Shown: positions 750-53,403, numbered from the stretch's first letter. The stretch is DNA of 64,000 nt from Cyclobacteriaceae bacterium (GCA_043774805.1 JAYVTB010000151.1:7-64006), one strand, 5' to 3'. The notes: generated by a model from the letters alone, not told the origin. A program made the numbers and translations.

Positions 750-3212
750 ATGCTCGTATTAAAACGTGACGGACACAGGGAGTCCGTAAAGTTTGATAAA
801 ATCACCGCCCGTATTGAAAAACTCTGCTATGGTTTAGATCCCAATTTTGTCAACCCGGTAGAAGTGGCTATGAAGGTGATCAACGGTCTGTATGACGGTG
901 TTTCAACTCAAGAACTTGACAACCTTGCCGCAGAGATTGCAGCAACACTCACCACCAAACATCCGGACTTCGCCAAGTTGGCAGCACGCATCGCTGTTTC
1001 CAACTTGCATAAAGTCACCAGTAAGTCTTTTTCAAACACGATGAAAAGACTTTATACCTATGTAGATCCGAAGACCGGCCAGAACGCTCCACTTATCTCC
1101 AAAGAAACGTGGAAGGTAATTCATGAACATGCGGCTGAATTGGATGAAGCGATCCTCTATGATCGGGATTTCAGTTACGATTACTTCGGGTTTAAAACAC
1201 TGGAGCGCTCTTACCTCATGAAAATTGATGGTAAAGTAGTAGAGCGCCCTCAGCATTTGTTAATGCGCGTAGCGGTAGGCATTCATGGAGAAGATCTTCC
1301 TGGTGCCATTGAAACGTATAACCTGCTATCAGAGAAGTGGTTCACCCATGCTACTCCAACTCTGTTCAATGCAGGAACTCCAAAGCCTCAACTTTCATCC
1401 TGCTTCCTTCTCACCATGAAGGACGACAGCATCGATGGAATTTATGATACCTTAAAACAAACCGCCAAGATTTCGCAGTCTGCTGGTGGTATTGGTCTAA
1501 GCATTCACAATGTGCGAGCAAAAGGCTCTTATATTAAAGGAACCGGTGGCACATCCAATGGTATTGTGCCCATGCTGAGAAATTTTGACATGACAGCACG
1601 TTATGTGGATCAGGGAGGTGGCAAACGCAAAGGCAGTTTCGCGATCTATCTTGAACCCTGGCATGCCGATGTGTTTGAATTCCTCGAACTAAAGAAGAAC
1701 CATGGAAAAGAAGAAATGCGCGCACGCGATCTGTTCTATGCGATGTGGATTCCTGATTTGTTCATGAAGCGCATTGAAAGTAATGAGATGTGGTCACTCT
1801 TCTGCCCTAATGAAGCTCCCGGGCTTGCTGATTGCTATGGCGATGAGTTTGAGCGTCTCTACGAGAAATACGAAAAAGAAGGAAAAGCACGCAGACAAGT
1901 TAAAGCACAGGACTTGTGGTTTGAAATTCTGGAAGCACAGATTGAGACCGGCACACCTTATATGTTATATAAAGATGCTGCCAACAAGAAATCGAACCAG
2001 AAGAACCTTGGCACGATCAAATCAAGTAATCTCTGCACCGAGATCATGGAGTACACTTCACCCGATGAAGTGGCCGTTTGTAATCTCGCTTCCATCGCAC
2101 TTCCAAAATTCGTAACCGAAGATGGCAAGTTCGATCACCAGAAGTTATATGAAATCACCAAAGTAGTTACGCGCAACCTGAACAAGGTGATTGATGTGAA
2201 CTACTACCCAGTGCCTGAGGCTAAGTATTCAAACATGCGTCACCGCCCGATTGGTATTGGTGTGCAAGGATTAGCGGATGCCTTCATTTTACTTCGCATG
2301 CCATTTGAGTCTGACGAAGCCCGTGGATTGAACATAGCCATTCATGAGACCATCTATTTTGCAGCGATGGAAACTTCCATGGAGTTAGCAAAACTGAATG
2401 GCCCTTACGAAACCTTCAAAGGATCACCCGTGTCAAAAGGAATTTTCCAGTTTGATATGTGGGGAGTAACTCCGGATTCTGGCCGTTGGGATTGGGACAA
2501 TCTTAAGAAAGACGTGAAGCAACACGGTGTTCGCAACTCATTGTTGCTGGCTCCTATGCCTACCGCTTCTACTTCACAGATTTTAGGTAACAACGAATGT
2601 TTTGAGCCATATACCTCAAACATCTACACCCGCAGAACGCTATCAGGCGAATTCATCATTGCCAACAAGCACCTGATGAAAGATCTGATCAGTCTTGGGT
2701 TGTGGAGTGAAAACATGCGCCAGAAACTGATTTCCACTAACGGTTCTGTACAGCCTATTCCTGAGATTCCTCAAAACATCAAGGACATCTATAAAACGGT
2801 ATGGGAAATTTCGCAGAAGTCCATCATTGATATGAGTGCCGACCGCGGAGCCTATATCTGCCAGTCGCAGAGTTTGAACATTCACCTGACAGATCCAAAC
2901 TTTGGCAAACTCACTTCGATGCACTTCTATGCCTGGAAGAAAGGCCTGAAAACAGGTATGTATTACCTGCGCTCTACAGCCGCTGCGGACGCTATCAAGT
3001 TTACACTTGACAAGAATGCTGCACAGCAACCTTTTACTCCAGTCGTTTCAACTCCAGTTGTCGCCACGGTGACTGAGCCTGTTGCTATCTATGCAGTAAA
3101 ATCAGAAACGCAACAATCCATTCCGTATGAACAAGTCAGCGATGAACAGAAGCGTTCTGATATGGCCTGCTCGCTGGATAATCCGGAAGCGTGTGAAGCG
3201 TGCGGATCCTAA
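750..3212 (+). CDS. nrdA: Ribonucleotide reductase class Ia alpha subunit with N-terminal ATP cone
   Basis: ATP cone ([16 protein letters not shown]), [37 protein letters not shown] and C-terminal CEACGS. Confidence 0.98.
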
Positions 3213-3235
3213 AATCGAGAGTAACATTAAAATTG

Positions 3236-3265
3236 AAAAAGCCCCTCATCATGTGGGGCTTTTTT
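3236..3265 (+). terminator. Intrinsic terminator after nrdA
   Basis: AAAAAGCCCC-loop-GGGGCTTTTTT hairpin with a T-tract. Confidence 0.85.
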
Positions 3266-3281
3266 ATTTACCTACATCAAT

Positions 3282-3450
3282 TTAACCTGGATTATGCAAT
3301 AGCCGCGACCTTCAGGTCGGGGGGAATAAACAAAAAAATATTTGGCTTTAGCCAAAATTATCTTTGGGCTAAAGCCCCTTTTGGATTGTTTTCATTTGTT
3401 CCCCGACATAAATGTCGGGGCTATTTTTCTAATGCATAATCCGGGTTTAA
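3282..3450. repeat. Nested-palindrome REPIN/MITE-like element, copy 1
   Basis: Near-identical copy at 14035-14195. Terminal imperfect inverted repeats (ttaacctggattatgca / tgcataatccgggtttaa), two inverted ATAGCC-footed hairpins and two inner GGCTTTAGCC / GGCTAAAGCC palindromes. Confidence 0.85.
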
Positions 3451-3465
3451 CCGTAAATTGACAGT

Positions 3466-4458
3466 ATGAAAATCGCATTCTTCAGTACGCAACCCTACGA
3501 CAAGACCTTTTTTGAACTGCACAATTTAGGATTCGGTTTAACAATTGAATATTATGAAGCGACCCTAAATGAAAAGACAGTTAATCTATTGGGAAATGTT
3601 GAGGCTGTTTGTGTGTTTGTAAACGATCAAATCAATAGACCTGTCATTCAAGCTTTAGCTGGTAAAGGAATAAAAATAATAGCCTTACGTTGTGCCGGTT
3701 TTAATAACGTTGACCTGGAGGCAGCTAAAGAATTTGATATTAAAATCGTTCGTGTTCCTGCATATTCCCCTTATGCAGTCGCGGAGCATGCTGTTGCCAT
3801 GATTATGACATTGAATAGAAAAACGCACAAAGCATATAATCGGGTGCGTGAGCAAAACTTTTCACTCAATGGTCTTCTCGGCTTTGATCTTCATGGAAAA
3901 ACGGTGGGTGTGGTTGGGACTGGAAATATCGGACAGGTATTTTGTACCATTATGAATGGCTTCGGTTGCAAGGTGCTCGCCTATGATATTCATCCCAAAG
4001 AGGCACTGATTTCGCTAGGGGTGCAATACGTTCCGCTGGCAGAAATATTTACACAATCAGATATTATTTCACTTCATTGTCCGCTCAATGAACATACACG
4101 GTACCTCATCAATGATCAGTCTGTTCAGCAAATGAAAAAAGGAGTTATGCTAATCAATACCAGTAGAGGTGCACTCATTGATACACGAACAGCGATACAA
4201 GCACTTAAGTCGAGAGTTATCGGTTCATTGGGAATTGATGTTTATGAGCAAGAAGAAAAGTTATTCTTCCGCGATCTTTCTGAAAAAATCATTCAGGATG
4301 ATATAATTACCCGTCTTAGCAGTTTTCCAAATGTGCTAATTACAGCGCATCAGGGGTTCTTCACCCATGAAGCATTGACACAAATGGCATTGACTACGCT
4401 CTCCAATATTACAAGTTATCAAAAGGGAGAGCCTTTAATCAATGAGGTTAAGTTTTAA
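3466..4458 (+). CDS. ldhA: D-lactate dehydrogenase / D-2-hydroxyacid dehydrogenase
   Basis: MKIAFFSTQPYD start, RCAGFNNVD, GVVGTGNIG, LINTSRG, DVYEQE, TAHQ. Confidence 0.9.
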   Translation: MKIAFFSTQPYDKTFFELHNLGFGLTIEYYEATLNEKTVNLLGNVEAVCVFVNDQINRPVIQALAGKGIKIIALRCAGFNNVDLEAAKEFDIKIVRVPAYSPYAVAEHAVAMIMTLNRKTHKAYNRVREQNFSLNGLLGFDLHGKTVGVVGTGNIGQVFCTIMNGFGCKVLAYDIHPKEALISLGVQYVPLAEIFTQSDIISLHCPLNEHTRYLINDQSVQQMKKGVMLINTSRGALIDTRTAIQALKSRVIGSLGIDVYEQEEKLFFRDLSEKIIQDDIITRLSSFPNVLITAHQGFFTHEALTQMALTTLSNITSYQKGEPLINEVKF

Positions 4459-4464
4459 ATGAAG

Positions 4465-4500
4465 AGTGATGATTTACCGCTAAAACGGTAAATCATCACT
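4465..4500. repeat. Perfect 15-bp inverted repeat spanning the stop codon of the DUF3127-like gene
   Basis: AGTGATGATTTACCG-CTAAAA-CGGTAAATCATCACT. Confidence 0.9.
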
Positions 4501-4830
4501 AGCCGTATTATCAGGAATAAAGGAATCATCGGTTGGTGGTGGCGCAGAGTCCTTACCAGATGCACCGGTTTGTTTCGCTACCTTCCATGCACGTGCTTCG
4601 GTGTACCAACGACCATTGTATTCGCGGCTTTCCAAATTGATGGAGGCGGTAATTTTTTCGCCAATAGACAATTTGATTTCATCTACCTTTTCGCCCCATA
4701 AGGAAAGGCACACTTTCTTGGGATATTGGCCAGGCGTTTCAAGTATAAATTCCTGCTTCTTCCACACTCCGTTTTTGCCTTGTCCGGTTTGCAAAGGCAA
4801 AAGACTAACTACTGTTCCTGCTATTTCCAT
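4480..4830 (-). CDS. DUF3127-like putative OB-fold ssDNA-binding protein with an SSB-type tail
   Basis: W-K-K-Q-E-F...QYPKK...SREYNGRWYT pattern recalled as DUF3127. A low-complexity linker ends in DDLPF. Confidence 0.8.
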   Translation of the reverse strand: MEIAGTVVSLLPLQTGQGKNGVWKKQEFILETPGQYPKKVCLSLWGEKVDEIKLSIGEKITASINLESREYNGRWYTEARAWKVAKQTGASGKDSAPPPTDDSFIPDNTASDDLPF

Positions 4831-4837
4831 AAATAAA

Positions 4838-5419
4838 TTACAATAAAGATTTCAACTCAAACACTAATCCGGGCATCACTTCCATGCCTTCCAATTTCTC
4901 ATCAAAAGAAATAATAGTTTTTACCAATCCCTTTTGCGAAAATACCCATGCTTTTTTTTCTAAAGGATCGATGAGCCATGCCAGCTGGCAGCCATTTTTA
5001 ATCCAATCTTCCATTTTGGATTTTAATTGATGGATTGAATCCGATGGGGATCTAACTTCAATAATAAAATCAGGACAAAGCGGAGGAAATTTTTCGCGCT
5101 GAATATGAGTAAGGGCATCCCACCTTTCCTTCAACACAAAAGCAGCATCTGGTGCCAGCACGGAATTGTCAGGAAGTCTAAACCCAACAGAAGAATCCAA
5201 CAGAATGCCTTTGTTTTCATGAGCATCATACCAATGAACCAAAGCCCTGTATATTTTAAAGTGAGTGGTTCCTGTTGTTCCGCCTGAAGGTGACATGATT
5301 ATTAATTGGCCGTCTTTGTTACGTTCAATGTGAAACCAATCATTGGCTATGCAGAAATCAAACAATTCATCATCCGTGAATGCACTTCTCTCAGGAAATT
5401 TCAATACTATAGGTTCCAT
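4838..5419 (-). CDS. Uma2 (DUF820) family PD-(D/E)xK endonuclease-like protein
   Basis: LAPDAAFV, CPDFIIEVRSPSD, KMEDW..NG..LAWLIDP. Confidence 0.88.
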   Translation of the reverse strand: MEPIVLKFPERSAFTDDELFDFCIANDWFHIERNKDGQLIIMSPSGGTTGTTHFKIYRALVHWYDAHENKGILLDSSVGFRLPDNSVLAPDAAFVLKERWDALTHIQREKFPPLCPDFIIEVRSPSDSIHQLKSKMEDWIKNGCQLAWLIDPLEKKAWVFSQKGLVKTIISFDEKLEGMEVMPGLVFELKSLL

Positions 5420-5449
5420 GCACTGTAAAGATATGGAATTCGACTTTCG

Positions 5450-7342
5450 TTATAAAGCGCCATTCTTGATCTCCTCCACCACCGTAGGATCAACCAATGT
5501 AGACGTGTCGCCTAAATTGCTGGTTTCGCCTTCTGCCACCTTGCGCAAAATCCTGCGCATAATTTTTCCTGAGCGGGTTTTTGGCAATCCGCTTACAAAC
5601 TGAATTTTATCGGGCTTGGCTATCGGGCCTATGATTTTAGAAACCATCTCACGGATTTCCTTTCTCAGGTTTTCTTCTTCATGAGGCATATCATAACACG
5701 TTACGTACGCATAGACACCTTGCCCTTTGATATCGTGAGGGTAACCTACAACAGCCGACTCGCATACGGATGAGTGTTCATCAATAGCACTCTCAATTTC
5801 TGCTGTACCCATATTGTGGCCTGACACTATAATAATATCATCCACTCTTCCAGTGATGCGATAGTATCCTTCTTCATCGCGCTTGCATCCATCTCCTGTA
5901 AAATATTTTCCGGGGAAGGTGGAGAAGTAGGTGTCCTTAAACCGTTGATGATCGCCATAGATGGTTCGTGCCATGGAGGGCCATGGAAACTTAATGGTTA
6001 ATCTTCCCTCCACCCCGTTCTCTGATATTTCATTTCCACTTTCATCCATCACTGCAGGTTGAACACCAGGCAAAGGCAATGTTGCAAAGGCCGGTTTCAA
6101 TTTGGTCACATTAGCAATGGGAGAGATCATGATTCCTCCTGTTTCGGTTTGCCACCACGTATCTACAATCGGGCACTCACCCCGACCAATATGCTCGTGA
6201 TACCAATGCCATGCCTCCTCATTGATGGGCTCACCCACTGTTCCCAAAATCTTTATCTCTTGAAGATCATAATTATTTACAAAACTTAGTGGTGCTTTCT
6301 CCAACGATCGAATTGCCGTTGGGGCGGTATAAAAAATATTTACCTTATGCTTCTCAACCACATGCCAGAATCTTCCCATGTCTGGCCAGGATGGAACTCC
6401 TTCAAATATTACTGTTGTTGCTCCAGCCGACAATGGACCATATAAAATATAAGAGTGGCCAGTCACCCAACCCACATCGGCTGTGCACCAGAACACCTGA
6501 CCTTCCTGATATTGAAATACAGTGCGGAATGTATAATTGGTGAACACCATGTAGCCACCACACGTGTGGACCATCCCTTTGGGTTTGCCGGTAGATCCAG
6601 AAGTATAGAGAATGAAGAGTAAGTCTTCGGCATCCATTGCTTCAGCCGGACATTCCGCTGAAACTTTAGCGATTTCGTCATGCCACCATAGATCGCGACC
6701 GGGTTTCATCGTAACCGGATTCAATGTTCTTTGATAGACAATAGTCTTTTCTACCGTGGGGCATTTTAACAGGGCCTCATCTACAATTATCTTCAAATCG
6801 ATTTTTTTATCACCACGATATGATCCATCTGTGGTAAGCACAATTTTGCAACCCGAATCATTAATGCGATCAATCAGGGAACCAGCAGAAAATCCTGCAA
6901 ATACAACTGAGTGCACCGCACCGATACGGGCGCAACCCAAAATGGCATAGGCTACTTCAGGAATCATCGGCATATAAATGCAAACACGATCTCCTTTTTT
7001 CACGCCTTGATTCTTGAGCATGTTACCTACACGGCAAACATTATCATACAATTCCTGATAGGTGATGTGTCTGGATGGTTCATGGGGATCATTCGATTCC
7101 CAAATAATGGCATGTTGATTTGCCCGGTGAGGCAAATGGCGATCGATACAATTTTCGGTAATGTTCAACTTACCACCCAGAAACCACTTTACCTGAGCCT
7201 TATAGAAGTCCCATTCAAGTACCTTATCCCATTTCTTCTTCCATTGAAAATCTGATGCTACATCTGCCCAAAAAGCTTCGGGCTCTTCAACACTCTTTTT
7301 GTAGGTAGATAAGTACGCTTGTTGTGATCGGATAATTTCCAT
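5450..7342 (-). CDS. acs: Acetyl-CoA synthetase (AMP-forming)
   Basis: LYTSGSTGKPKG, VDTWWQTETG, ITGRVDD, LPKTRSGKIMRR. Confidence 0.97.
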   Translation of the reverse strand: MEIIRSQQAYLSTYKKSVEEPEAFWADVASDFQWKKKWDKVLEWDFYKAQVKWFLGGKLNITENCIDRHLPHRANQHAIIWESNDPHEPSRHITYQELYDNVCRVGNMLKNQGVKKGDRVCIYMPMIPEVAYAILGCARIGAVHSVVFAGFSAGSLIDRINDSGCKIVLTTDGSYRGDKKIDLKIIVDEALLKCPTVEKTIVYQRTLNPVTMKPGRDLWWHDEIAKVSAECPAEAMDAEDLLFILYTSGSTGKPKGMVHTCGGYMVFTNYTFRTVFQYQEGQVFWCTADVGWVTGHSYILYGPLSAGATTVIFEGVPSWPDMGRFWHVVEKHKVNIFYTAPTAIRSLEKAPLSFVNNYDLQEIKILGTVGEPINEEAWHWYHEHIGRGECPIVDTWWQTETGGIMISPIANVTKLKPAFATLPLPGVQPAVMDESGNEISENGVEGRLTIKFPWPSMARTIYGDHQRFKDTYFSTFPGKYFTGDGCKRDEEGYYRITGRVDDIIIVSGHNMGTAEIESAIDEHSSVCESAVVGYPHDIKGQGVYAYVTCYDMPHEEENLRKEIREMVSKIIGPIAKPDKIQFVSGLPKTRSGKIMRRILRKVAEGETSNLGDTSTLVDPTVVEEIKNGAL

Positions 7343-7477
7343 AATGAAATCAGAATTGGTAGTAGAATCACTAAAATCCGCCTTTTCTTTTAATATTCAA
7401 ATTGATTCTATCCGGAATGGAAAAAAGTGGTCGTCTTTGGCAACAGTTGAAGAATAACCGAATTGAATGAAGGAATA

Positions 7478-8245
7478 TTAAATAAGATATTCTACGGCAA
7501 CTGCCACAAGCGCTCCGACCACAGCAACTGCCAGTTTTTTTGCGTGAAAGCGGTGCTCAGGGCTACTTTCAAATACTATGGTGGTTGAAATGTGAAGGAA
7601 ATTCCCACTCACCAAGGCATATAAATAAATCAGGGAGGTATCGGACATGACATTACTCTCAATAAAGTAGGAACTAATGAACAAACCGACTGGAGCGGCA
7701 ACTGAAAACCCGATCAGGTAAGGAATTGCCTTTCTCTTCGAATGAAGTTGAGAAGCCAATACCGTCATCAGTGCAAAAGCAGCAGGCGCACGATGCAATG
7801 CAATGCCCAACAATACGGCATTTACATCATACCCAAAGCCGATGGTGGCAGGCTGCGCGAGCATACTTCCTTCCAAAAATGCATGCACACATAAAGCAGC
7901 TAATAAAACAAGAGCAGACACAGTTTGATGAGTGTGTGAGTGATGATGGCTATGATCGTGTTCATGATCATGGGTATGAACGTGACCGTGCTCTACACCA
8001 GACGTAAAATATTCCAACAACTGCTGTAGAAAAAAACCGGCCAGCACAAACAAACCAATTAATTCTACCTCACTGTTTTGTAAATAAAGTTGTGGCAGTA
8101 TGTGTGTTACGGTAATCGAAAAAAGGTATGACCCTGCAAATACAAGCAATAGTTTGAAATTACTTCCTTTCGCTGATGGAACCAGGTAGACCATTAACCC
8201 TGCCAGCAAGGGAGTAAAAAAAAGAACGATCAGTTTAATTGCCAT
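7478..8245 (-). CDS. ZIP family divalent metal transporter
   Basis: Multi-TM protein with HAFLEG and LHRAPAAF signature helices and a His-rich loop. Confidence 0.85.
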   Translation of the reverse strand: MAIKLIVLFFTPLLAGLMVYLVPSAKGSNFKLLLVFAGSYLFSITVTHILPQLYLQNSEVELIGLFVLAGFFLQQLLEYFTSGVEHGHVHTHDHEHDHSHHHSHTHQTVSALVLLAALCVHAFLEGSMLAQPATIGFGYDVNAVLLGIALHRAPAAFALMTVLASQLHSKRKAIPYLIGFSVAAPVGLFISSYFIESNVMSDTSLIYLYALVSGNFLHISTTIVFESSPEHRFHAKKLAVAVVGALVAVAVEYLI

Positions 8246-8273
8246 GTCTTTATCCGAAGATAACTTTGAATTG

Positions 8274-9302
8274 CTAGGGATTGATTTTTAGTTGTGTTCG
8301 TATTTTTTCCGTGGCAAAGGTAGCTAAACCTTCGGGTGCGGAATAAATTAAAAATGCATCGATCTCGGGATGCTTCTTCAAAATCTCCATTGCCTTTTCA
8401 TGTCCCATCGCCATAAAAGCAGTGCCCCAAACGTCCGCAGTCGTTGCATTATCAGCAAACACAGAGGCACTCAGGATTGCCCGGGAGGCAGGATAGCCTG
8501 TGAATGGATCAATGGTATGAGAATACTTCTTGCCATCTACTTCCCGATAATTAAAATAATTTCCTGAAGTGGTGAAGGACTTGTCGGAAAGCGTGACATA
8601 AGCTTTGAAGAATTGATTTTCATTTGTGGAGTTCGGATCGAGAATGCCCAACTCCCAGGGCTTGCCTGATTGAAGATTCATTCCTACTGCCATACCTTCA
8701 CCGCCCAACTCTACCAACATGTTTTTAATACCTTTTGTCTTTAAATAGTCGGTGATTACATCGGCTCCATAACCCTGACCTATTCCTCCAAAATCGATCT
8801 GAGCTCTCGGGTCAAGTTTCCAGATACTATCATGATTGAACTGAATTTTATTAAAGCCGATAAAACTTCTGATCGAATCAATTTTAGAACTATCTGGCCG
8901 CGAAACTTTCTGATGACCAAATCCCCACAAATTTACCAGGGGCATTACCGATGGATCAAAAGCTCCTTCCGAATCTTTATAAACCTGTTGAGCAACTTTA
9001 AGTGGTGGATACAGATAAGGAAGTTTAAAACGAAATCCGTTTGACTTATTAAATATCGAAACCTCTGAATACGGGTTGTAATTATTGATTGACAGATTCA
9101 CCAAAACGAGCAATGAATCAACATCTTTTTTAAAATTGCGTTGCTCCGGATCGAAATAGGTAATATGGTACGTAGTGGCCATTGTCTCTCCTTCAATCTT
9201 GATTGGCGCTGTTGGTATCTCGGGATTTCTCCATTTCCAAACCACAAACATGGCTATGAGCAGGATCACCGAATAAATTGCGTTCTTCCAACGATTGTCC
9301 AT
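8274..9302 (-). CDS. apbE: FAD:protein FMN transferase
   Basis: GETMATTYHI, FDPSV.PLVNLWGF, DFGGIGQG, TSGNY, SHTIDP.TG. Confidence 0.9.
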   Translation of the reverse strand: MDNRWKNAIYSVILLIAMFVVWKWRNPEIPTAPIKIEGETMATTYHITYFDPEQRNFKKDVDSLLVLVNLSINNYNPYSEVSIFNKSNGFRFKLPYLYPPLKVAQQVYKDSEGAFDPSVMPLVNLWGFGHQKVSRPDSSKIDSIRSFIGFNKIQFNHDSIWKLDPRAQIDFGGIGQGYGADVITDYLKTKGIKNMLVELGGEGMAVGMNLQSGKPWELGILDPNSTNENQFFKAYVTLSDKSFTTSGNYFNYREVDGKKYSHTIDPFTGYPASRAILSASVFADNATTADVWGTAFMAMGHEKAMEILKKHPEIDAFLIYSAPEGLATFATEKIRTQLKINP

Positions 9303-9397
9303 GAGTTTGAATTTTGGCGGTGCAATTTAGAACCATGCCGATCCGATTAAAACACTTTTAGTGGTTTATTTGCTTAACTTTCGATTGAGAAATACCT

Positions 9398-10426
9398 ATG
9401 CGCGAGGATTATTTAAAAGGAGAACCAGAAGGTCTTAATTCTGCAGAAAAAGAAATCGAGAAAGCACTTCGTCCTCTTTCGTTTCATGACTTTAGTGGTC
9501 AGCAGAAAGTAGTAGATAATATTAAAATCTTTGTGCTTGCTGCTAAACAAAGATCCGAGTCGTTGGATCACGTGTTATTGCATGGCCCTCCGGGCTTGGG
9601 GAAAACAACACTATCGTTCATCATTGCCAATGAATTGGGATCCAATATTAAAATTACTTCAGGGCCTGTATTAGATAAACCCAGCGACCTGGCAGGGCTT
9701 CTCACCAACCTTGAAACCAATGATGTTTTATTCATTGATGAGATTCACCGACTCAATCCCATCGTTGAAGAATATTTGTATTCCGCCATGGAAGATTTCA
9801 GAATCGATATCATGCTCGATTCAGGACCCAATGCAAGATCCGTTCAGATTTCATTAAATCCATTCACCTTAATTGGAGCCACCACCCGGGCAGGCTTACT
9901 TACTTCACCTTTACGCGCACGTTTTGGAATTAATGCCCGATTGGAATATTATGATTCGCAATTGCTAACCAAAATTGTGCATCGTTCTGCAAGCATCCTT
10001 GCGACACCTATTGTAGATGACGCTGCGTTTGAAATTGCAAGACGAAGCCGAGGTACTCCGCGTATTGCGAATAATCTATTAAGGCGCACACGTGACTTTG
10101 CACAAATAAAAGGAGACGGCACCATCACCAAAGCTATTGCACAAATGGCACTGAAGGCGTTGGATGTTGATGAAAATGGTTTGGACGATATGGACAATCG
10201 CATCCTGAGTGCCATCATTGAAAAATTCAAAGGAGGACCTGTGGGGTTGACTACGATCGCCACGGCCGTGGGAGAAGAAGCCGAAACCATTGAAGAAGTG
10301 TATGAACCGTTTCTGATCCAGGAGGGATATATTAAACGCACATCGCGGGGAAGAGAAGCCACTGAAAAATCCTACAAACATTTAAAGATTGTTCCTCCAT
10401 CAAGAACACAAGGATTGTTTGATTGA
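9398..10426 (+). CDS. ruvB: Holliday junction branch migration helicase RuvB
   Basis: GPPGLGKTT Walker [32 protein letters not shown]. Confidence 0.98.
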
Positions 10427-10464
10427 GTTTCCAATCATCTTTCCGGAGTTTAAAATGATGGTTG

Positions 10465-11829
10465 CTATTCTATGATAAATTTCTTCCGCGTTGTCTTCAG
10501 TCCATCAGAAGTCATGAGGGTATAAATACCCGTGGGAAGTGACGTTATGGATTGATGGATAATGTCTTCGTTCATTGCATGAATCTGAAATATTTCCCTG
10601 CCGGGAAGATCATAGAAAATTATGGACACACTACCTTCAAAGCCATACGCTTTAATATTCAGTTCCGTTGATGCCGGTATTGGATAAAGCTCAACTCCAT
10701 GAGTTTCCTTCCGAGTTGTAATAGCCATTATGGGATCATTGCCGTACAGGGATGGAATCTCATTTCCAAAAATAATATACGGTGATTGCATAAAACTAAT
10801 GAAGCTATTTTTAGCGGATTGACCACTCATCGAATAGGGTACATAGGGAAACGACCAACTTGCATTAATCCAGGTTAATAGCCAGCTTATTTTCCATGCC
10901 TTTTCATCTGGATCATTTAATAGCGTTGGGAGTATCGTATCATTCCAATACAAACTTGCATTATCACCACTTACCCGGTTACCGGTCTCCGACAAGACGG
11001 CTATCTTATCATGTTGCGCTGCAAAATCAACCAGTGAACCAAGTTGTGTTCTTAACGAAGTTGAATTGATTTCATAATAGTCCAGGCCAACAAAGTCTAT
11101 GTATTCGTCACCGGGATAATAATTGAAATCCAATGGGAAATTGGGAGACCAGCAAAACAAAACACTTTTAGTTCTGTCTTTCACGTAGTTAACTGTTAGT
11201 GCGTATAATGCTCGATAATTAGTAGTTGAAGTAGCTGCGCTTCCCCACCAAAACCAATTTCCATTCATTTCATGAAAAGGCCGAAAGACGATAGGAATGG
11301 CATCATTACCAACCTTAAGATCATTGTTAATGATGTTGATTACTTTGTCTAGTTCCCCAAAAAACCACGCCCGATCACCATTTAAGTCGGCAACAATATT
11401 ATTTACCAGATCAGGAGGCGAACCAGCATATTGATAAGAGGATGTACCCCTGGCACTCAGATGCCAATCAAAGGTGACTACGTAACCAAGTTCATAGGCC
11501 CATTTCACAGCTTCGGTGTGATACGATCTTTCGGCATCACTTTTCTCCAGGTAATAATGAAAGTCAGAGCCCAACACAGCCGGATGCGAGCCGGTTACTG
11601 CTTTGGAATCTGAATAATCCTTTTCACCATGCGCACCACCTGAACTGTATCGGAAACTATTAAAAAACTCCTGACCGAAGAGTATGTTCTTACTATCTTG
11701 AATAATCTTCAGATTTTTATAAAGCGATTTTGTTTTGGTAGTTACATCCGAATCAACTTGAGCATAACCGTTTAAGAATGACATCAAGTATGCTAATGAA
11801 ACAAGTAATAGCTCAAATTTTACTTTCAT
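10465..11829 (-). CDS. Secreted GH26 glycoside hydrolase (beta-mannanase-like) with T9SS C-terminal sorting domain; ATG 11829 preferred over TTG 11850
   Basis: Signal peptide, RPFHEMNG (acid/base Glu), WFWWG, YYPGDEYIDFVGLDYY, LSETG (nucleophile), and a CTD (LYPIPA...YDLPGREI...GIY...KKFIIE). Confidence 0.88.
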   Translation of the reverse strand: MKVKFELLLVSLAYLMSFLNGYAQVDSDVTTKTKSLYKNLKIIQDSKNILFGQEFFNSFRYSSGGAHGEKDYSDSKAVTGSHPAVLGSDFHYYLEKSDAERSYHTEAVKWAYELGYVVTFDWHLSARGTSSYQYAGSPPDLVNNIVADLNGDRAWFFGELDKVINIINNDLKVGNDAIPIVFRPFHEMNGNWFWWGSAATSTTNYRALYALTVNYVKDRTKSVLFCWSPNFPLDFNYYPGDEYIDFVGLDYYEINSTSLRTQLGSLVDFAAQHDKIAVLSETGNRVSGDNASLYWNDTILPTLLNDPDEKAWKISWLLTWINASWSFPYVPYSMSGQSAKNSFISFMQSPYIIFGNEIPSLYGNDPIMAITTRKETHGVELYPIPASTELNIKAYGFEGSVSIIFYDLPGREIFQIHAMNEDIIHQSITSLPTGIYTLMTSDGLKTTRKKFIIE

Positions 11830-11908
11830 GGTTTTAACCTTGAAGCTCAAACTACTTCAATCCGTGATGTTGCAATTAACTGCATGAATACCTCTGAATG
11901 GAGTATGA

Positions 11909-12751
11909 TTAAATTACCTGAACAGTATTGGTCAACGTACCAATTCCTTCGATGGAAATTGAAACTTCATCATTTGCCTGAAGAGTGAATTCATTGGAGG
12001 GTACGATGCCTGTTCCGGTCATAAGGAAACTACCATATTCAAACTTGCATGCCCTGTAAAGCCACGAAGCTAATTCGGGAAGATTTCTCTTCATCCGATT
12101 GAGTTGAATCGAATTGCTAAACACATCCTGGTGATTTCTCTTTATGGAAATTGAGATCAGAGTCTCCTGTGAAATAGGTTGCTCAGGAACAAATAAGCAG
12201 GGTCCTAGCGCACAACTACGTTCATACACTTTCGCCTGAGGCAGGTATAAAGGATTTTCTCCTTCAATACTGCGTGAACTCATATCGTTGCCAACCGTGT
12301 AGGCCTGAATTTCGCCCTTTGAATTGATGTACAAAGTGAGCTCCGGTTCTGGAACATTCCACGATGAATCTTCACGAATGTATACTTCCTCATCGGGTGC
12401 GCTAACGCGATGAGGAAGTGCTTTAAAAAATAATTCGGGGCGTTCAGCATCATATACTTTTGAATAAACATCAGAAGCTCCCGATTCTTTGGATTCTTCC
12501 ATGCGCGCATCACGACTGCGCAAATAGGTTACACCGGCCGCCCAAACTTCCTGATTTCCGATAGGCGCAAGAACCTGACTTAATAGTTGCTTTCCCTCAT
12601 CAAACGGAAGTGGTTGTGAAATTTGCGAGAGTCCAGCCAGGTGTTGATGAAGGTTTGATCGGTTAATCACTACATCCCAATCTTCCGTCAAGAGAAATGC
12701 TTTATTTCCGTTCACCAGCAATGCGCCTTGCTTCGTTTTATATAATTGCAT
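11909..12751 (-). CDS. Fumarylacetoacetate hydrolase-family protein, 2-keto-3-deoxy-pentonate dehydratase (XylX/KdaD-like)
   Basis: [52 protein letters not shown]. Confidence 0.8.
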
Positions 12752-12754
12752 GAT

Positions 12755-13969
12755 TTACTTTTTAATTTTGCTTAAATCTACACCTAAAATATTTTTAGCC
12801 AACTCGTTCATCTTTTCAAAATCGCCCTCAAAATGACAGGTTAGTTGCTTGTAGCTTTTACTTTCTCCTGCCTTCAATTCAAGTGCTGACGAGGAAGATT
12901 CCAATTCATAGAAGGGCCCTAGTTGAGAGCCATCTGCCAATGGGCCGTCATTATATGAGTTTACGGCATCTCCCCGATATGGCTCTTCTTGCAATTCCCA
13001 TTTCGAATTCACATAAGCGGCATCGGGTGCGATTTCAAATCGTGTAACCGTGAGCACATTATTCTGGAAATCGTAACTGGCTGATAATGGTTTGGCAATA
13101 ATGGGAGACAAACCAATTTTACTGCGATACTTTCCATCGCACGTAAAAAACAAAACACTGTCTTGAATCGCGATGCGGTCAGCGGGAATTTCTCCAAAGT
13201 AGGTAGTGGTAATTAAATTTTTTGCATTCGCTGTCGGTTTGAATGGAATGATCACGATGGTTTGATCTGATGGTGTAAACATTCCCAGCAACCAAATGGA
13301 AAGCAAACCGGTTTCTTTTTTCCAATCATTGGCGCTAACATTCTTAATTTGATTCTCAGTTTGATAGCTCACAAACTTAACGCCAACAGGAACTTTTGCA
13401 CTTAACTCCAATTCCAGCTCATTTTTATTGAGCAACGAAATTTTTCTTTCAATGTAAAGATCAAAAACGGTTCCGCTATAATTCGTAATGGAAGCCTGTT
13501 TTGAAAATGTGGCGCTCAATGCGTTGCTTTCCACTACTTCAAATTCTTCAGTGTCAATTATGGCCGGCACCTGCCAGTTTTTAATCTCGAAGGAATCACC
13601 CTGATGAAAATAAAGAGAATACTGCCCGCCTTCCGGTCCTAACCAAAAACGCTCCTCACCTCCTACCGGATTAAATTGTTGTTTTTTTTCGCCAGAAGCA
13701 ATCAGGTTATAATTAAGCCAACCATAACTGGTTCCTTTATCCCCCGAGGCGGTGCTGGTCATAACCCGGCCCTGATAGTCGCCAGATAGCAACACCTTCG
13801 ACTCACCCGTTGCATCGCTCAGCTCGATGATACTTTTGGTATGCTTCTTTAAAAATCCAATGTCATCACCATAACTGCCAACGGCCTTATCGCTACTATT
13901 TTCTGTTCTACATCCTGAAACCATGGTCATCAAGAAAAGGAAAATGAAAATTTGCACTGAAAATTTCAT
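12755..13969 (-). CDS. DUF6786-like lipoprotein; start ATG 13969 (the ORF-track start 14032 is probably too long)
   Basis: Lipoprotein-like N-terminus ending in VSGC. The motifs GGEERFWLGPEGGQ and NSYNDGP...LGPFYELESSS were recalled as DUF6786. Confidence 0.65.
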   Translation of the reverse strand: MKFSVQIFIFLFLMTMVSGCRTENSSDKAVGSYGDDIGFLKKHTKSIIELSDATGESKVLLSGDYQGRVMTSTASGDKGTSYGWLNYNLIASGEKKQQFNPVGGEERFWLGPEGGQYSLYFHQGDSFEIKNWQVPAIIDTEEFEVVESNALSATFSKQASITNYSGTVFDLYIERKISLLNKNELELELSAKVPVGVKFVSYQTENQIKNVSANDWKKETGLLSIWLLGMFTPSDQTIVIIPFKPTANAKNLITTTYFGEIPADRIAIQDSVLFFTCDGKYRSKIGLSPIIAKPLSASYDFQNNVLTVTRFEIAPDAAYVNSKWELQEEPYRGDAVNSYNDGPLADGSQLGPFYELESSSSALELKAGESKSYKQLTCHFEGDFEKMNELAKNILGVDLSKIKK

Positions 13970-14034
13970 ACATAATGATTTGAATACTTTTTTAAGAATG
14001 TCATTTAAACAATTGTGACAACAGTTCAACACGA

Positions 14035-14195
14035 ATTATGCAATAGCCCCGAGACATTCAGGTCAGGGAAAATAAACAAAAAAAATTTGGCTTTAGCCAA
14101 AATTATCTTTGGGCTAAAGCCCTTCTGGATTGCTTTCATTTGTCCCCCGACATAAATGTCGGGGCTATTTTTCTAATACATAATAATCCAGGCTC
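14035..14195. repeat. Nested-palindrome REPIN/MITE-like element, copy 2
   Basis: Shares exact blocks with copy 1: 14086-14122 = 3341-3377 (37 bp) and 14145-14177 = 3401-3433 (33 bp). Confidence 0.85.
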
Positions 14196-14230
14196 AAGCT
14201 ATAAAGTTAACTCGTAAACCCCACTTCAAG

Positions 14231-14268
14231 AAAAAAAATTGCCTCATACCAAATGGCATGAGGCAATT
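14231..14268 (-). terminator. Intrinsic terminator downstream of the SusD relic
   Basis: AATTGCCTCAT / ATGAGGCAATT 11-bp stem, followed on the minus strand by a T-run. Confidence 0.8.
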
Positions 14269-14290
14269 ATCAATGATTAAAAGTGATAGT

Positions 14291-14404
14291 TTAGTTATAT
14301 CCAGGATTCTGGGTAAGGGTGGCTGCACCATCTTTCTTACTATTCAGAATCTCCTGAATAGTAATCGGAAAATATTCATGTTTCCCTTTTACAAACTGCA
14401 ACCT
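14291..14404 (-). pseudogene. RagB/SusD family C-terminal remnant
   Basis: Minus-strand frame reads RLQFVKGKHEYFPITIQEILNSKKDGAATLTQNPGYN*, the typical SusD terminal motif. An in-frame stop lies at 14405-14407 and there is no start codon. Confidence 0.75.
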
Positions 14405-14641
14405 CTAAGTTAACTGCCTTTATTGCCCTCTATAAGAGTTGATTTGATAATTAATGGCAGGAGCTGGTTTTAAAACAAGTCGGCTGGGTTAATCGCACGT
14501 GCTCTTACCAGGGGAGTACATCATAAGCTGCGTTGATGTTAGTGTGCATTTGGATATCAGCGGTATTTCATACATTCGATAATCAGTGTGTGATGCGTCA
14601 GAGCGATTCTTTTAATTAACTTACCTCCTTATTGCATTTCT

Positions 14642-20660: not shown

Positions 20661-20682
20661 GAAAAATAAGCCTATTTTTTAT

Positions 20683-20725
20683 AGCCGCTGATTCACAGAT
20701 CATTTTAACCTGTGAATCAGCGGCT
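20683..20725. repeat. REP-like hairpin, family 2
   Basis: Perfect 16-bp stem AGCCGCTGATTCACAG / CTGTGAATCAGCGGCT preceded by AT (ATAG foot). Confidence 0.75.
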
Positions 20726-21607: not shown

Positions 21608-21653
21608 GATTCACAGATTCTACAATTGGTTATTCAGTGAATCTGTTGGCTAT
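21608..21653. repeat. REP-like hairpin, family 2 (degenerate)
   Basis: GATTCACAGATTC...CAGTGAATCTGTTGGCTAT, located between convergent genes. Confidence 0.6.
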
Positions 21654-47346: not shown

Positions 47347-48060
47347 ATGCGCATGAAAAACATTGTTTTATTTTTCCTGATGATCCATGGTTCTTCCCTA
47401 CTTGCTCAGGATCTTTCTGGTGCCTGGCAAAGTGGTTCGGAAGAAAATCATTCCACCATGATCGTTGCCGGGAAATTTTTCTCCGTAGCCGTCTACAATT
47501 TGAAAGATAATATCTACACAAGGGCTTATGGTGGTCAGTGGCATCTCGATAAGAATCAATTTATTGAAACCCAGGAGTTCAATTCCATGAAGCCAGAATT
47601 GATTGGCGTAGAGCAATCCGCTGAAATCAAAATCCAAAAAGACAAACTGATTTTCAAGGCCAGCAATGTCACACAGGAATTTCTTCGAATTGATGACGGC
47701 AAGCCTGGTGAACTGGCTGGTGCCTGGTTGATTAGCGGTCGTATGGTAGATGGAAGCATTCAAAAGAGAACTCAAGGAGCGCGCAAAACCATGAAGATGC
47801 TTTCCGGTACGTGCTTTCAATGGATTGCTTATAACAATGAAACTAAGGAATTTTTTGGCACCGGTGGAGGCACTTTCACCACGAAAGATGGTGAGCATAC
47901 AGAAACCATAATGTTCTTCTCCAGGGACAATAGCCGCGTTGGTGCGAAATTGGAATTCGATTTCTCCTTAGCAGAAGGTGATTGGCGTCACCGCGGCAAG
48001 AGCAGCAAAGGTGAAGCCATTGATGAAATCTGGTCGAAGCGGGAAAAGATTGGCATCTAA
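47347..48060 (+). CDS. Secreted hypothetical protein with two tandem beta-rich repeats
   Basis: Signal peptide; internal repeat LSGAW...GGQW...E / LAGAW...GGGTF...E. Confidence 0.75.
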   Translation: MRMKNIVLFFLMIHGSSLLAQDLSGAWQSGSEENHSTMIVAGKFFSVAVYNLKDNIYTRAYGGQWHLDKNQFIETQEFNSMKPELIGVEQSAEIKIQKDKLIFKASNVTQEFLRIDDGKPGELAGAWLISGRMVDGSIQKRTQGARKTMKMLSGTCFQWIAYNNETKEFFGTGGGTFTTKDGEHTETIMFFSRDNSRVGAKLEFDFSLAEGDWRHRGKSSKGEAIDEIWSKREKIGI

Positions 48061-48099
48061 TTGTGGTTCCATCAGCTCAAGCTATTTCTTATTATTCCC

Positions 48100-48546
48100 A
48101 TGGATAAATATTCTCTCCCCATCCAAGTTCGCTGGTCTGACATCGATCAAAATCGACATCTTCGTCATTCTGCGTATTACGATTATGGGGCTACCGTACG
48201 CATCGCTTGTTTTTCTCAATACGGACTCACCAATATCAAATTTGAGGAGTTGCGTATTGGTCCGATTTTATTTCGTGAAGAAGCGGTATTCAAACGCGAA
48301 ATAAAATTTGAAGATCGCGTTACGGTTGATCTCATTGTCACCAAAGCTACTCCTGACTTTTCACGATGGAGTATGCGGCATCATTTCTATAAAGAAGATG
48401 GAACCCTAGCCGCAATCATTAATCTCGATGGTGCCTGGATGAATATATTGGCCAGAAAACTGGCTGTGCCTGATGAACTTATTCAAAACGTATTTAAAGA
48501 TTTTCCAAAAGCAATCGACTTTGAACTTATCCCAAAAAAAAATTAA
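48100..48546 (+). CDS. Hotdog-fold acyl-CoA thioesterase (4HBT-like); start ATG 48100
   Basis: VRWSDIDQNRHLRHSAYYD, GPILFREEAVFKREI. Confidence 0.85.
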   Translation: MDKYSLPIQVRWSDIDQNRHLRHSAYYDYGATVRIACFSQYGLTNIKFEELRIGPILFREEAVFKREIKFEDRVTVDLIVTKATPDFSRWSMRHHFYKEDGTLAAIINLDGAWMNILARKLAVPDELIQNVFKDFPKAIDFELIPKKN

Positions 48547-49122
48547 CTATCGAGTAATCCATTCCTCAATGACGCGTGGATAATGCAAATGCTCCAGTCG
48601 TTGAACCTTATCGGCAATGTCCGTTGGTGAATCAGCGCTATCTATTTCGCACACTGCCTGAAATAACATTTTTCCTTCGTCATATTTTTCGTCCACTTCA
48701 TGGATCGTGATTCCCGTTTGCTGATCGGATGAAGCCCTTACTGCTTCATGTACTTTCAGGCCATACATGCCCTTGCCGCCAAACTTAGGTAAGAGAGCCG
48801 GGTGGATATTAATAATGCGATTGGGAAATGCTCTAATCAGATAGGACGGCACGAGCCAAAGAAATCCAGCCAATACGATGTGGGTAATCCCCGCTTCAGT
48901 CAGCCAATACAATACCTCTTCACTTTCGCGGAATTGCTCACGAGTAAAAAAGTTTGATGAGATGGAATACTTTTTAGCTCGTTCCAAGCCATAGGCATCA
49001 GGATTATTACTGAGAACTAATTCTACCTTTATCGTAGGATGATTTTGGAAGTATGAAAAAATAGCTTCGGCATTAGAGCCGCTTCCTGAAATAAAAATTG
49101 CCAATCGTGCCTGCTTCATCAA
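48547..49122 (-). CDS. purN: Phosphoribosylglycinamide formyltransferase
   Basis: AIFISGSGSNA, VLAGFL, INIHPALLPKFGG, TGITIH.V...YDEG. Confidence 0.95.
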   Translation of the reverse strand: MMKQARLAIFISGSGSNAEAIFSYFQNHPTIKVELVLSNNPDAYGLERAKKYSISSNFFTREQFRESEEVLYWLTEAGITHIVLAGFLWLVPSYLIRAFPNRIINIHPALLPKFGGKGMYGLKVHEAVRASSDQQTGITIHEVDEKYDEGKMLFQAVCEIDSADSPTDIADKVQRLEHLHYPRVIEEWITR

Positions 49123-53357: not shown

Positions 53358-53403
53358 AGCCACAGATTCTCTAATTAAATACAATCAGTGAATCTGTGGC
53401 TAT
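53358..53403. repeat. REP-like hairpin, family 2
   Basis: Perfect 12-bp stem AGCCACAGATTC / GAATCTGTGGCT followed by AT, located between convergent genes. Confidence 0.75.

Follow-up and report, generated by a model that had tools for sequence, protein, structure and literature searches.

A compact, hairpin-rich element of some 160 bp lies directly upstream of a lactate dehydrogenase gene in a Cyclobacteriaceae bacterium, and a second copy occurs in the same 64,000-nt stretch of DNA (hereafter the window), raising the question of which kind of enzyme dispersed it, and of whether its ends and its interior share one origin. In the initial annotation both copies were regarded as nested palindromes of the REP/REPIN type, with a tetranucleotide ATAG foot, belonging to a non-autonomous family mobilised in trans by an HUH (RAYT or IS200-like Y1) transposase. 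The sequence strings on which that reading was built are found where they were said to lie, and the two copies are 88% identical across ~165 bp; of the two exact blocks described as common to them, the 33-bp block (3401–3433 = 14145–14177) stands, while the longest, given as 37 bp, measures 38 bp (3340–3377 = 14085–14122). Refined coordinates for both copies are collected in Table 1.

Table 1. Features of the two element copies and their surroundings, in window coordinates (A2 and A3 are the alignments, R1 the covariance model, X3 the metagenome run and L043, L049 and L051 the IS1380-family loci described in the text).
Feature	Position	Strand	Remarks
Copy 1 of MITE	3286–3445		refined coordinates; one TTTAA duplicated at 3281–3285 / 3446–3450
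Left target-site duplication, copy 1, TTTAA	3281–3285		same 5-mer at 3446–3450; single TTTAA at X3 empty site; permutation test, 15 copies
Right target-site duplication, copy 1, TTTAA	3446–3450		pairs with 3281–3285
Left terminal inverted repeat, copy 1, CCTGGATTATGCAATAG	3286–3302	+	IS1380-type left end; matches L049/L051 CCCAGATTACGCAATAG
Right terminal inverted repeat, copy 1, TTTTTCTAATGCATAATCCGGG	3424–3445	+	IS1380-type; 21/22 bases as in L043 right end TTTTCTAATGCATAATCTGGG
Cargo of copy 1, four-hairpin doublet cassette, ATAG foot to CTAT foot	3299–3424	+	covariance model R1, 129.5 bits
Hairpin 1, CCGCGACC-TTCA-GGTCGGGG	3303–3322	+	changes on both sides: 4/8 pairs in A2, 8/8 in A3
Mini-hairpin 1, TGGC-TTTA-GCCA	3343–3354	+	covariation in A2/A3; beyond the repeat copies, its 10-mer palindrome clusters at the C158 Y1 locus
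Mini-hairpin 2, GGGC-TAAA-GCCC	3366–3377	+	covariation in A2/A3
Hairpin 2, CCCCGACA-TAAA-TGTCGGGG, then CTATTTTT	3401–3420	+	covaries in A3; intrinsic-terminator-like
Left target-site duplication, copy 2, TTCAA	14026–14030		4/5 bases agree with CTCAA at 14193–14197
Copy 2 of MITE, left end CACGAATTATGCAATAG, right end ...TACATAATAATCCAGG, cargo 14043–14168	14031–14192	+	R1, 108 bits
Right target-site duplication, copy 2, CTCAA	14193–14197		4/5 bases agree with TTCAA
D-2-hydroxyacid (lactate) dehydrogenase gene (ldhA), context only	3466–4458	+	ORF; Pfam 2-Hacid_dh and 2-Hacid_dh_C

In the sediment-metagenome assembly from which it comes (5.72 Mb, 195 contigs, 41.8% G+C), the window constitutes contig C151, and BLAST and pattern scans across all contigs located 16–17 family loci on 13 of them, at 78–98% identity to copy 1. 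Read depth on the element in the source runs amounts to 10–40x that of the flanks. A copy is typically ~160 bp long, within a family range of 126–193 bp, and holds no ORF; variants of 171–193 bp carry an additional small hairpin within the loop of hairpin 1, internally deleted copies measure 126–132 bp, three loci are fragments, and one 36-bp member comprises two ends alone. Duplication of a local segment inside the window, for which the presence of just two copies in its 64 kb might speak, is refuted by this dispersal over 13 contigs and retains a probability as good as nil; that the family is mobile and non-autonomous, as initially claimed, is upheld. The full element was not found in 24 other genomes of the genus or 16 of the order, with its terminal 25–30 nt matched in a few of them.

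Nearly all copies are bounded by the inverted repeats CCCGGATTATGCAATAG ... CTAATGCATAATCCGGG, at which similarity between aligned copies ends. Terminal inverted repeats had been recognised from the outset, although the outermost TTTAA that was counted into them lies outside the repeat, as a 5-bp target-site duplication. Flanking 5-mers vary among copies and agree within a copy (TTTAA/TTTAA, ATAAA/ATAAA, TTAAA/TTAAA, CTAC/CTAC and others): across 15 copies, the 5-mers on the two sides agree at 59 of 75 positions, compared with 44.6 ± 2.9 for re-paired flanks, and none of 20,000 permutations reaches 59. Terminal inverted repeats combined with a fixed 5-bp target duplication are the signature of DDE transposases, not of Y1 ‘peel and paste’ transposition.

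An empty orthologous site was looked for and found upstream of ldhA in a relative, ~90% identical to the window, held in Logan contigs of another sediment metagenome (run X3). The X3 contig joins window position 3273 directly to 3446 (...ACCTACATCAA-TTTAA-CCGTAAATT), with no element and one TTTAA, which fixes copy 1 as 3286–3445 together with one duplicated TTTAA and places its insertion later than the split of the two lineages. At the site of copy 2 the X3 contig omits 13974–14193 and has 56 other letters between, which is consistent with an empty site, less clean than that of copy 1.

The ends of the copies (CCCGGATTATGCA...TGCATAATCCGGG) match those of full IS1380-family insertion sequences in four congeneric genomes (G014, G081, G056 and G015); related IS1380-family elements were identified in 7 of 81 genomes from the genus. 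The complete element L043 of G014, with ends CCCAGATTATTCATTAAGAAA and TTTTCTAATGCATAATCTGGG and a 5-bp duplication ATTAT, encodes a 438-aa transposase (NCBIfam transpos_IS1380, NF033539, 272 bits, cut-off 180; Pfam DDE_Tnp_1_4, 178 bits), the reading frame of which terminates within a right end identical at 21 of 22 bases to that of the MITE. In G056 and G015 the IS1380 elements begin with CCCAGATTACGCAATAG and finish with CCCAGATTACGCATTAG, and TTAAA is duplicated in both; their left end reads GCAATAG where the right end reads GCATTAG, the same left/right difference as in the MITE; the left ‘ATAG foot’ therefore overlaps the IS1380 left end. The generation of 5-bp duplications has been described for ISEcp1, a member of the IS1380 family (PMC2887853), and IS1380 is not mentioned in a 2024 review of prokaryotic MITEs (PMC10969869); MITEs derived from this family are scarcely documented. 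With matching ends and duplications of this kind, the outer shell of the family can be identified with high confidence as an IS1380-type MITE. Taken together, IS1380-type ends, duplicated pentamers and the one TTTAA left at the empty site argue that in this genome the family spread as a DDE-moved MITE and not as a RAYT-moved REPIN, and the RAYT mobilisation first proposed is not supported.

Further details of these insertion sequences were recorded. A second, multi-copy variant of the L043 element (G014:C190) breaks three G014 contigs (C20, C631 and C451), and L043 itself looks to us to interrupt a TonB-dependent receptor (SusC-like) gene, as read from two ORF halves. In L049 and L051 (G056 and G015), a shortened version of the right end (TTTTCTAATGCGTA), together with another GCAATAGC, lies 6 nt beyond the left end, an arrangement which, from its sequence, resembles a minimal shell echoed internally. 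Two end-like matches in the genome under study, at C142:3441 and C195:5600, were rejected as element ends, being chance matches within paralogous coding genes.

All copies are intergenic. Among the 32 neighbouring gene ends, 23 are 3' ends, and 9 of 16 copies lie between convergent genes, such that a position upstream of genes, initially pointed out for the two copies in the window, does not hold as a rule. Several copies begin 2–14 nt past a stop codon, the TAA of which often falls within the target pentamer. Copy 1 is atypical, as it lies after the terminator of an upstream 820-aa gene and 20 nt before the ldhA ATG, a position from which it follows that the ldhA promoter would lie within the element or read through it. 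Any effect on neighbouring genes, whether by the terminator-like hairpin 2 or by copy 1 near ldhA, would be a side effect of insertion. The consequences for this genome are modest: copies mark insertion-tolerant sites past stop codons and break short-read assemblies, and copy 1 parts ldhA from its previous upstream region.

The interior of the element, 126 nt in length, comprises four local hairpins with TTTA/TAAA-type tetraloops and ATAG-type feet. Left-half loops are TTTA or TTCA and right-half loops are TAAA, by which the cassette resolves into two inverted half-units, each consisting of an ATAG-type foot, an 8-bp GC-rich hairpin (TTTA/TTCA loop), a spacer of ~25 nt and a GGC-TTTA-GCC mini-hairpin; ATAG, ATTG or GTAG are the tetranucleotide feet seen in the family. 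Copy 1 folds with exceptional stability (RNA, -73.2 kcal/mol, z = -8.3; DNA, z = -8.8), which none of 200 shuffles equals. A single long hairpin spanning the whole element is the thermodynamic optimum, yet was rejected, as its long-range pairing (79.5%) equals that of shuffled alignments and shows no covariation. In an alignment of 19 cassettes (A2), by contrast, the four local hairpins are 96.5% paired, with eight pairs changed on both sides and a covariation of 0.173 against 0.054 when shuffled (0/500) and <=0.05 with slid partners. In a wider set of 89 model matches (A3), which were not chosen by 20-mer but were fitted to the model, with both strands counted, all 24 of 24 pairs have changed on both sides, and covariation rises to 0.495 against 0.120. 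The ‘nested palindrome’ of the initial annotation is thus replaced by four covarying local hairpins; its comparison of the ATAG-foot hairpins with REP/REPIN elements is sustained, since a foot and a GC-rich hairpin recur in inverted, covarying doublets.

Strong covarying hairpins would also suit a regulatory element or a structured RNA without coding function (such as a small RNA, terminator or attenuator) duplicated near genes, as would the resemblance of hairpin 2 and its T-run to an intrinsic terminator, and that of the element centre, TATCTTTG, to a Bacteroidota -7 box. Such an origin is nevertheless highly improbable: no Rfam family matches, a scan of 3000–14500 at E <= 1 having returned three chance-level matches (E = 0.075–0.14) below gathering scores; the element shows two-fold symmetry and lies in either orientation with respect to the genes beside it; and it is bounded by transposon ends and target duplications, with an empty site in a relative.

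The hairpin cassette extends far beyond this genome. The exact 20-mer of hairpin 2, CCCCGACATAAATGTCGGGG, is found in >116 stretches of a species-representative genome collection where ~1 would be expected by chance, with hosts that are mostly Bacteroidota (including Ignavibacteria-type MAGs), plus other phyla, and with many matches at contig ends. A layout recurs before the 20-mer, namely foot, hairpin 1, TGGCTTTAGCCA, spacer, GGGCTAAAGCCC, ~25 nt, hairpin 2 and foot, and covariance model R1 detects the cassette in 76 of 301 genomes sampled from the phylum, and in 48 of 143 genera. Stretches with the 20-mer (L054–L133) also include MAGs labelled as CPR, Omnitrophota, Planctomycetota, Altiarchaeota and Micrarchaeota, a taxon spread which suggests either broad horizontal transfer or binning artefacts.

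Smaller hairpins were observed alongside the cassette. Five MITE copies (C135:145267–145452, C89:108676–108868, and others on C147, C65 and C183) have a tiny hairpin, CCTGCC..CCGGACAGGCAGG (21–33 nt), inserted in the hairpin 1 loop, and it also occurs alone at C3:6731, C3:6998 and C111:54210; comparable loop insertions are present in other genomes (L130, L120, L106 and L065), such that TTTA loops seem to be favoured points of insertion. A further family, of hairpins with long stems (GCCxCAGATTC...GAATCTGxGGC), has three members in the window, at 20681–20725, 21608–21653 and 53358–53403; these end in GGCTAT or start with ATAGCC, and the cassette model gave no match to them.

Three Y1_Tnp genes are present in the genome under study, one of which (C158:48075–48533, 153 aa) scores 69.8 bits against NCBIfam IS200 (cut-off 55) and 37 bits against REP_Tyr_transpos (cut-off 80), with motifs EWQDQY (WQ) and YIKNQEMHH (Y---Q--HH) and an HuH motif of EHCH, as against DH[IV]H in PMC6006769. 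Subclass 1.2 of Quentin et al. (2018) is characterised by a length of ~148 aa, a WQ motif, a Y---Q--HH motif and the entry ‘REP: no’ (PMC6006769), and the C158 protein agrees with it in length and in both the WQ and Y---Q--HH motifs; as judged from its sequence, the enzyme is assigned to IS200-like subclass 1.2 and not to the RAYT class. The gene is bracketed on both sides by ~390-bp direct repeats (76% identical, each internally duplicated; region 47640–48930), containing four CAATAGCC-CATGAGC-TTTA-GCTCATGG hairpins and seven GGCTWWAGCC palindromes, the latter with ~3 further occurrences in the genome beyond the MITE copies and the C158 locus. All four ATAG-foot hairpins lie on the strand of the Y1 gene, an arrangement that is IS200-like and not inverted and REPtron-like. 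The stems at this locus (CCATGAGC) differ from those of the cargo (CCCCGACC), and within the genome the C158 flanks match themselves alone, with no dispersed REP family derived from them. Every dispersed copy in the genome is shelled, a genome scan having returned no bare copy of this cargo; given the differing stems and the lack of bare copies, nothing shows that the C158 enzyme acted on these copies. A second, bare REP-like family was also observed, with a unit of ~100 nt and three hairpins (ACCCCnnnGGGGT; GTAG/ATAG-CCACGGGT-TTTA-ACCCGTGG; CGCGCC...GGCGCG), at C105:9513, 12444, 13535 and 13846, C13:1407, C162:85936, C187:18447, C72:14193 and C124:1202; it is similar to the sequence flanking the two remaining Y1 genes (C99:153–497 and C172:255–494).

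Across the phylum, the association between cassette and gene is close. Model hits adjoin the Y1 gene, on one or both sides, in all 30 of 30 loci examined, where cassettes have no shell ends, and in some genomes (G275 and G185) tandem hairpin arrays adjoin it. In the 301-genome sample, with Y1 homologues defined by E <= 1e-40 to the C158 gene, the cassette is present in 44 of 50 genomes with such a gene and 32 of 251 without (odds ratio 50, Fisher p = 1e-25, kinship ignored), and in 4 of 23 genomes with IS1380 and 72 of 278 without (odds ratio 0.6, p = 0.46, kinship likewise ignored). Near 80 hairpin-bearing loci of the genome collection, one Y1 gene (L058) and no IS1380 gene were found. The anticipated Y1 gene flanked by the same hairpins is thus borne out as to hairpin type, at C158 and at 30 of 30 homologous loci, but not as to stem sequence, which at C158 differs from that of the repeats, nor as to a RAYT enzyme. 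A link between the cassette and subclass-1.2 Y1 genes is likely on this evidence, and, as the subclass is listed with ‘REP: no’, the association is new to that literature.

The same observations bear on the reading from which the analysis started, in which a RAYT/Y1 enzyme moves the entire 160-bp palindrome in trans as a REP doublet, with no role for a DDE transposase. Inverted pairs of ATAG-foot hairpins fit REPIN architecture, the genome has a Y1 gene with the same hairpin type, and Y1 genes and cassette are associated in the phylum at large. To our knowledge, however, Y1 enzymes leave no target duplication, and the copies have co-varying 5-bp duplications and a single-TTTAA empty site; their ends are those of DDE-encoding IS1380 elements and are missing from the Y1 loci, and copy number is just ~16. 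Mobilisation by a Y1 enzyme alone is accordingly very unlikely.

At C128:26840–26875 a 36-bp element, CCCGGATTATGCAAT|TTTTCTAATGCATAATTTGGG, with flanks TTTAT and TTCAT, constitutes a shell without cargo, equivalent to the MITE minus its cassette within three ambiguous bases; it represents either a pre-capture shell or precise loss of the cassette. Shelled cassettes with the same IS1380-type ends are found in Chryseolinea and Cytophagales MAGs, and in genomes of other classes (G323, G115 and G279) cassettes have related ends, ACTGAWGTTACGCAA (TTAYGCAA in common), with perfect, variable 5-bp duplications and several shelled copies identical within one genome. It is these perfect, variable duplications for which the Ignavibacteria-type ends ACTGAWGTTACGCAA were rejected as a third hairpin. 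Among 20 complete doublets found in genomes other than this one, the ends are of TTAYGCA type in ~10 and inverted but of another kind in 3, and ~6 show no inverted ends. With doublets found bare, beside Y1 genes and in shells of different kinds, the capture may date far back or have happened more than once, and shell and cargo may form an old unit rather than a recent capture.

On another reading, the hairpin interior belongs intrinsically to an old MITE lineage and is retained by selection, for example for a role in transposition or termination, while Y1 genes sit in or next to such elements, for instance through use as landing sites, and do not act on them. The joint occurrence of shell and cassette in distant classes, with related TTAYGCAA ends and 5-bp duplications, favours such an origin, as does the shelling of all dispersed copies here. 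It is nonetheless unlikely, in that ~6 of 20 complete doublets elsewhere are without detectable inverted ends and 3 have unrelated ends, cassettes are bare at Y1 loci, a cargo-less shell exists at C128, and chance landing hardly accounts for flanking in 30 of 30 loci, directly at gene borders.

The reading preferred here is that the element is an IS1380-type MITE carrying a REPIN-like doublet cargo linked to subclass-1.2 Y1 genes, which is quite probable; it is a nested mobile element, and probably a fossil. The shell is a minimal MITE made from both IS1380-family ends, 17–22 bp each, which an IS1380-type DDE transposase would bind in trans and insert into AT-rich pentamers (WTWAA), with 5-bp staggered cuts leaving the 5-bp duplication; all ~16 copies in this genome are taken to have arisen so. 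The cassette is a REPIN-like doublet of a phylum-wide family accompanying subclass-1.2 Y1 (HUH) enzymes, and we infer that the Y1 enzyme most likely recognises its hairpins as single-stranded DNA. The doublet would have entered a bare shell, and then been amplified as a passenger. More tentatively, at somewhat less than an even chance, the cassette could be the missing DNA partner of the orphan subclass-1.2 Y1 enzymes, for which the literature records neither REPs nor insertion-sequence ends; it would then be an ATAG-foot, TTTA-loop REPIN-type doublet present across several phyla and spreading largely inside transposase-less shells; if this is true, two unrelated transposition chemistries cooperate in one element.

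The partner transposase of the shell was sought in the assembly by tblastn and HMM searches, neither of which found an IS1380 homologue, so that the copies are orphaned or are served by an unbinned element. The source metagenome holds short contigs ~80% identical to the G014 transposase gene over nearly its full length, at a depth of 15–21, similar to the 11–12 of this genome; these contigs could derive from this or from another organism. The copies are probably stranded fossils, or else their partner transposase was not binned. No IS1380 match was obtained in G323, G115 or G279, though cassette-bearing shells are present there, and identical shelled copies without a matching DDE gene (G323 and G115) could perhaps have been mobilised by a non-DDE enzyme. 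In G323, a 1.56-kb element at ~271–1843 of L217 (G323:C4:36100–38200), with ends ACTGAAGTTACGCAA and a 5-bp duplication TAATA, both resembling those of local cassette-bearing MITEs, encodes an IS110-family RNA-guided transposase (NF033542, 186.6 bits); it is either an IS110 nested in an empty shell or the true partner of the G323 MITEs. A search for autonomous partners returned L217 as the only long element of G323 with the same ends and duplication, and none in G115 or G279. An IS110-family homologue ~40% identical to the G323 protein also occurs in the genome under study (C128:7488–8572, in two tblastn pieces); its frame may be broken, and no MITE-type ends were found nearby.

Should the link to Y1 genes hold, a candidate DNA substrate is provided for HUH/Y1 subclass 1.2, which is entered as ‘REP: no’ in the 2018 classification. 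The family shows, moreover, that a DDE transposase unrelated to REP-type hairpin doublets can amplify them once they sit inside a MITE shell, which counsels caution in inferring the mobilising enzyme from repeat architecture alone.

Each constituent of the element has a likeness among known systems. With IS1380-family insertion sequences such as ISEcp1, and with DDE-derived MITEs, it shares matching ends, a 5-bp AT-rich duplication, small size, non-coding sequence, multiple copies and intergenic location; it differs in that no partner transposase is found in the assembly, and in an interior that is an independent hairpin cassette rather than leftover insertion-sequence DNA. The REP/REPIN and RAYT systems, and BIMEs, have in common with the cassette a tetranucleotide foot with a GC-rich hairpin, inverted doublets, and a low-copy Y1 gene flanked by the same kind of hairpin. 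The enzyme here is, however, IS200-like subclass 1.2 and not a class 2 TnpA-REP (PMC6006769); each half-unit has a second mini-hairpin, with TTTA/TAAA-type tetraloops throughout and low copy number; and copies have transposon ends and target duplications, whereas REPINs are without both. As in IS200/IS605 elements and PATEs, the C158 Y1 protein passes the NCBIfam IS200 cut-off and hairpins adjoin the gene ends, although the gene is single-copy, the C158 hairpins lie in ~390-bp direct repeats and the dispersed form is an inverted doublet; in addition, PATEs insert without duplicating their target, on the 3' side of a fixed tetra- or pentanucleotide, whereas the 5-mers flanking this family are variable and duplicated. 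Transposase-less transposon ends around passenger DNA, moved in trans, have been described as Tn3-derived TIMEs (PMC4133298), and with these and mobile insertion cassettes the element shares transposase-less ends that enclose an unrelated passenger, whereas its passenger is a repeat of mobile-element type rather than a gene, and its shell belongs to the IS1380 family.
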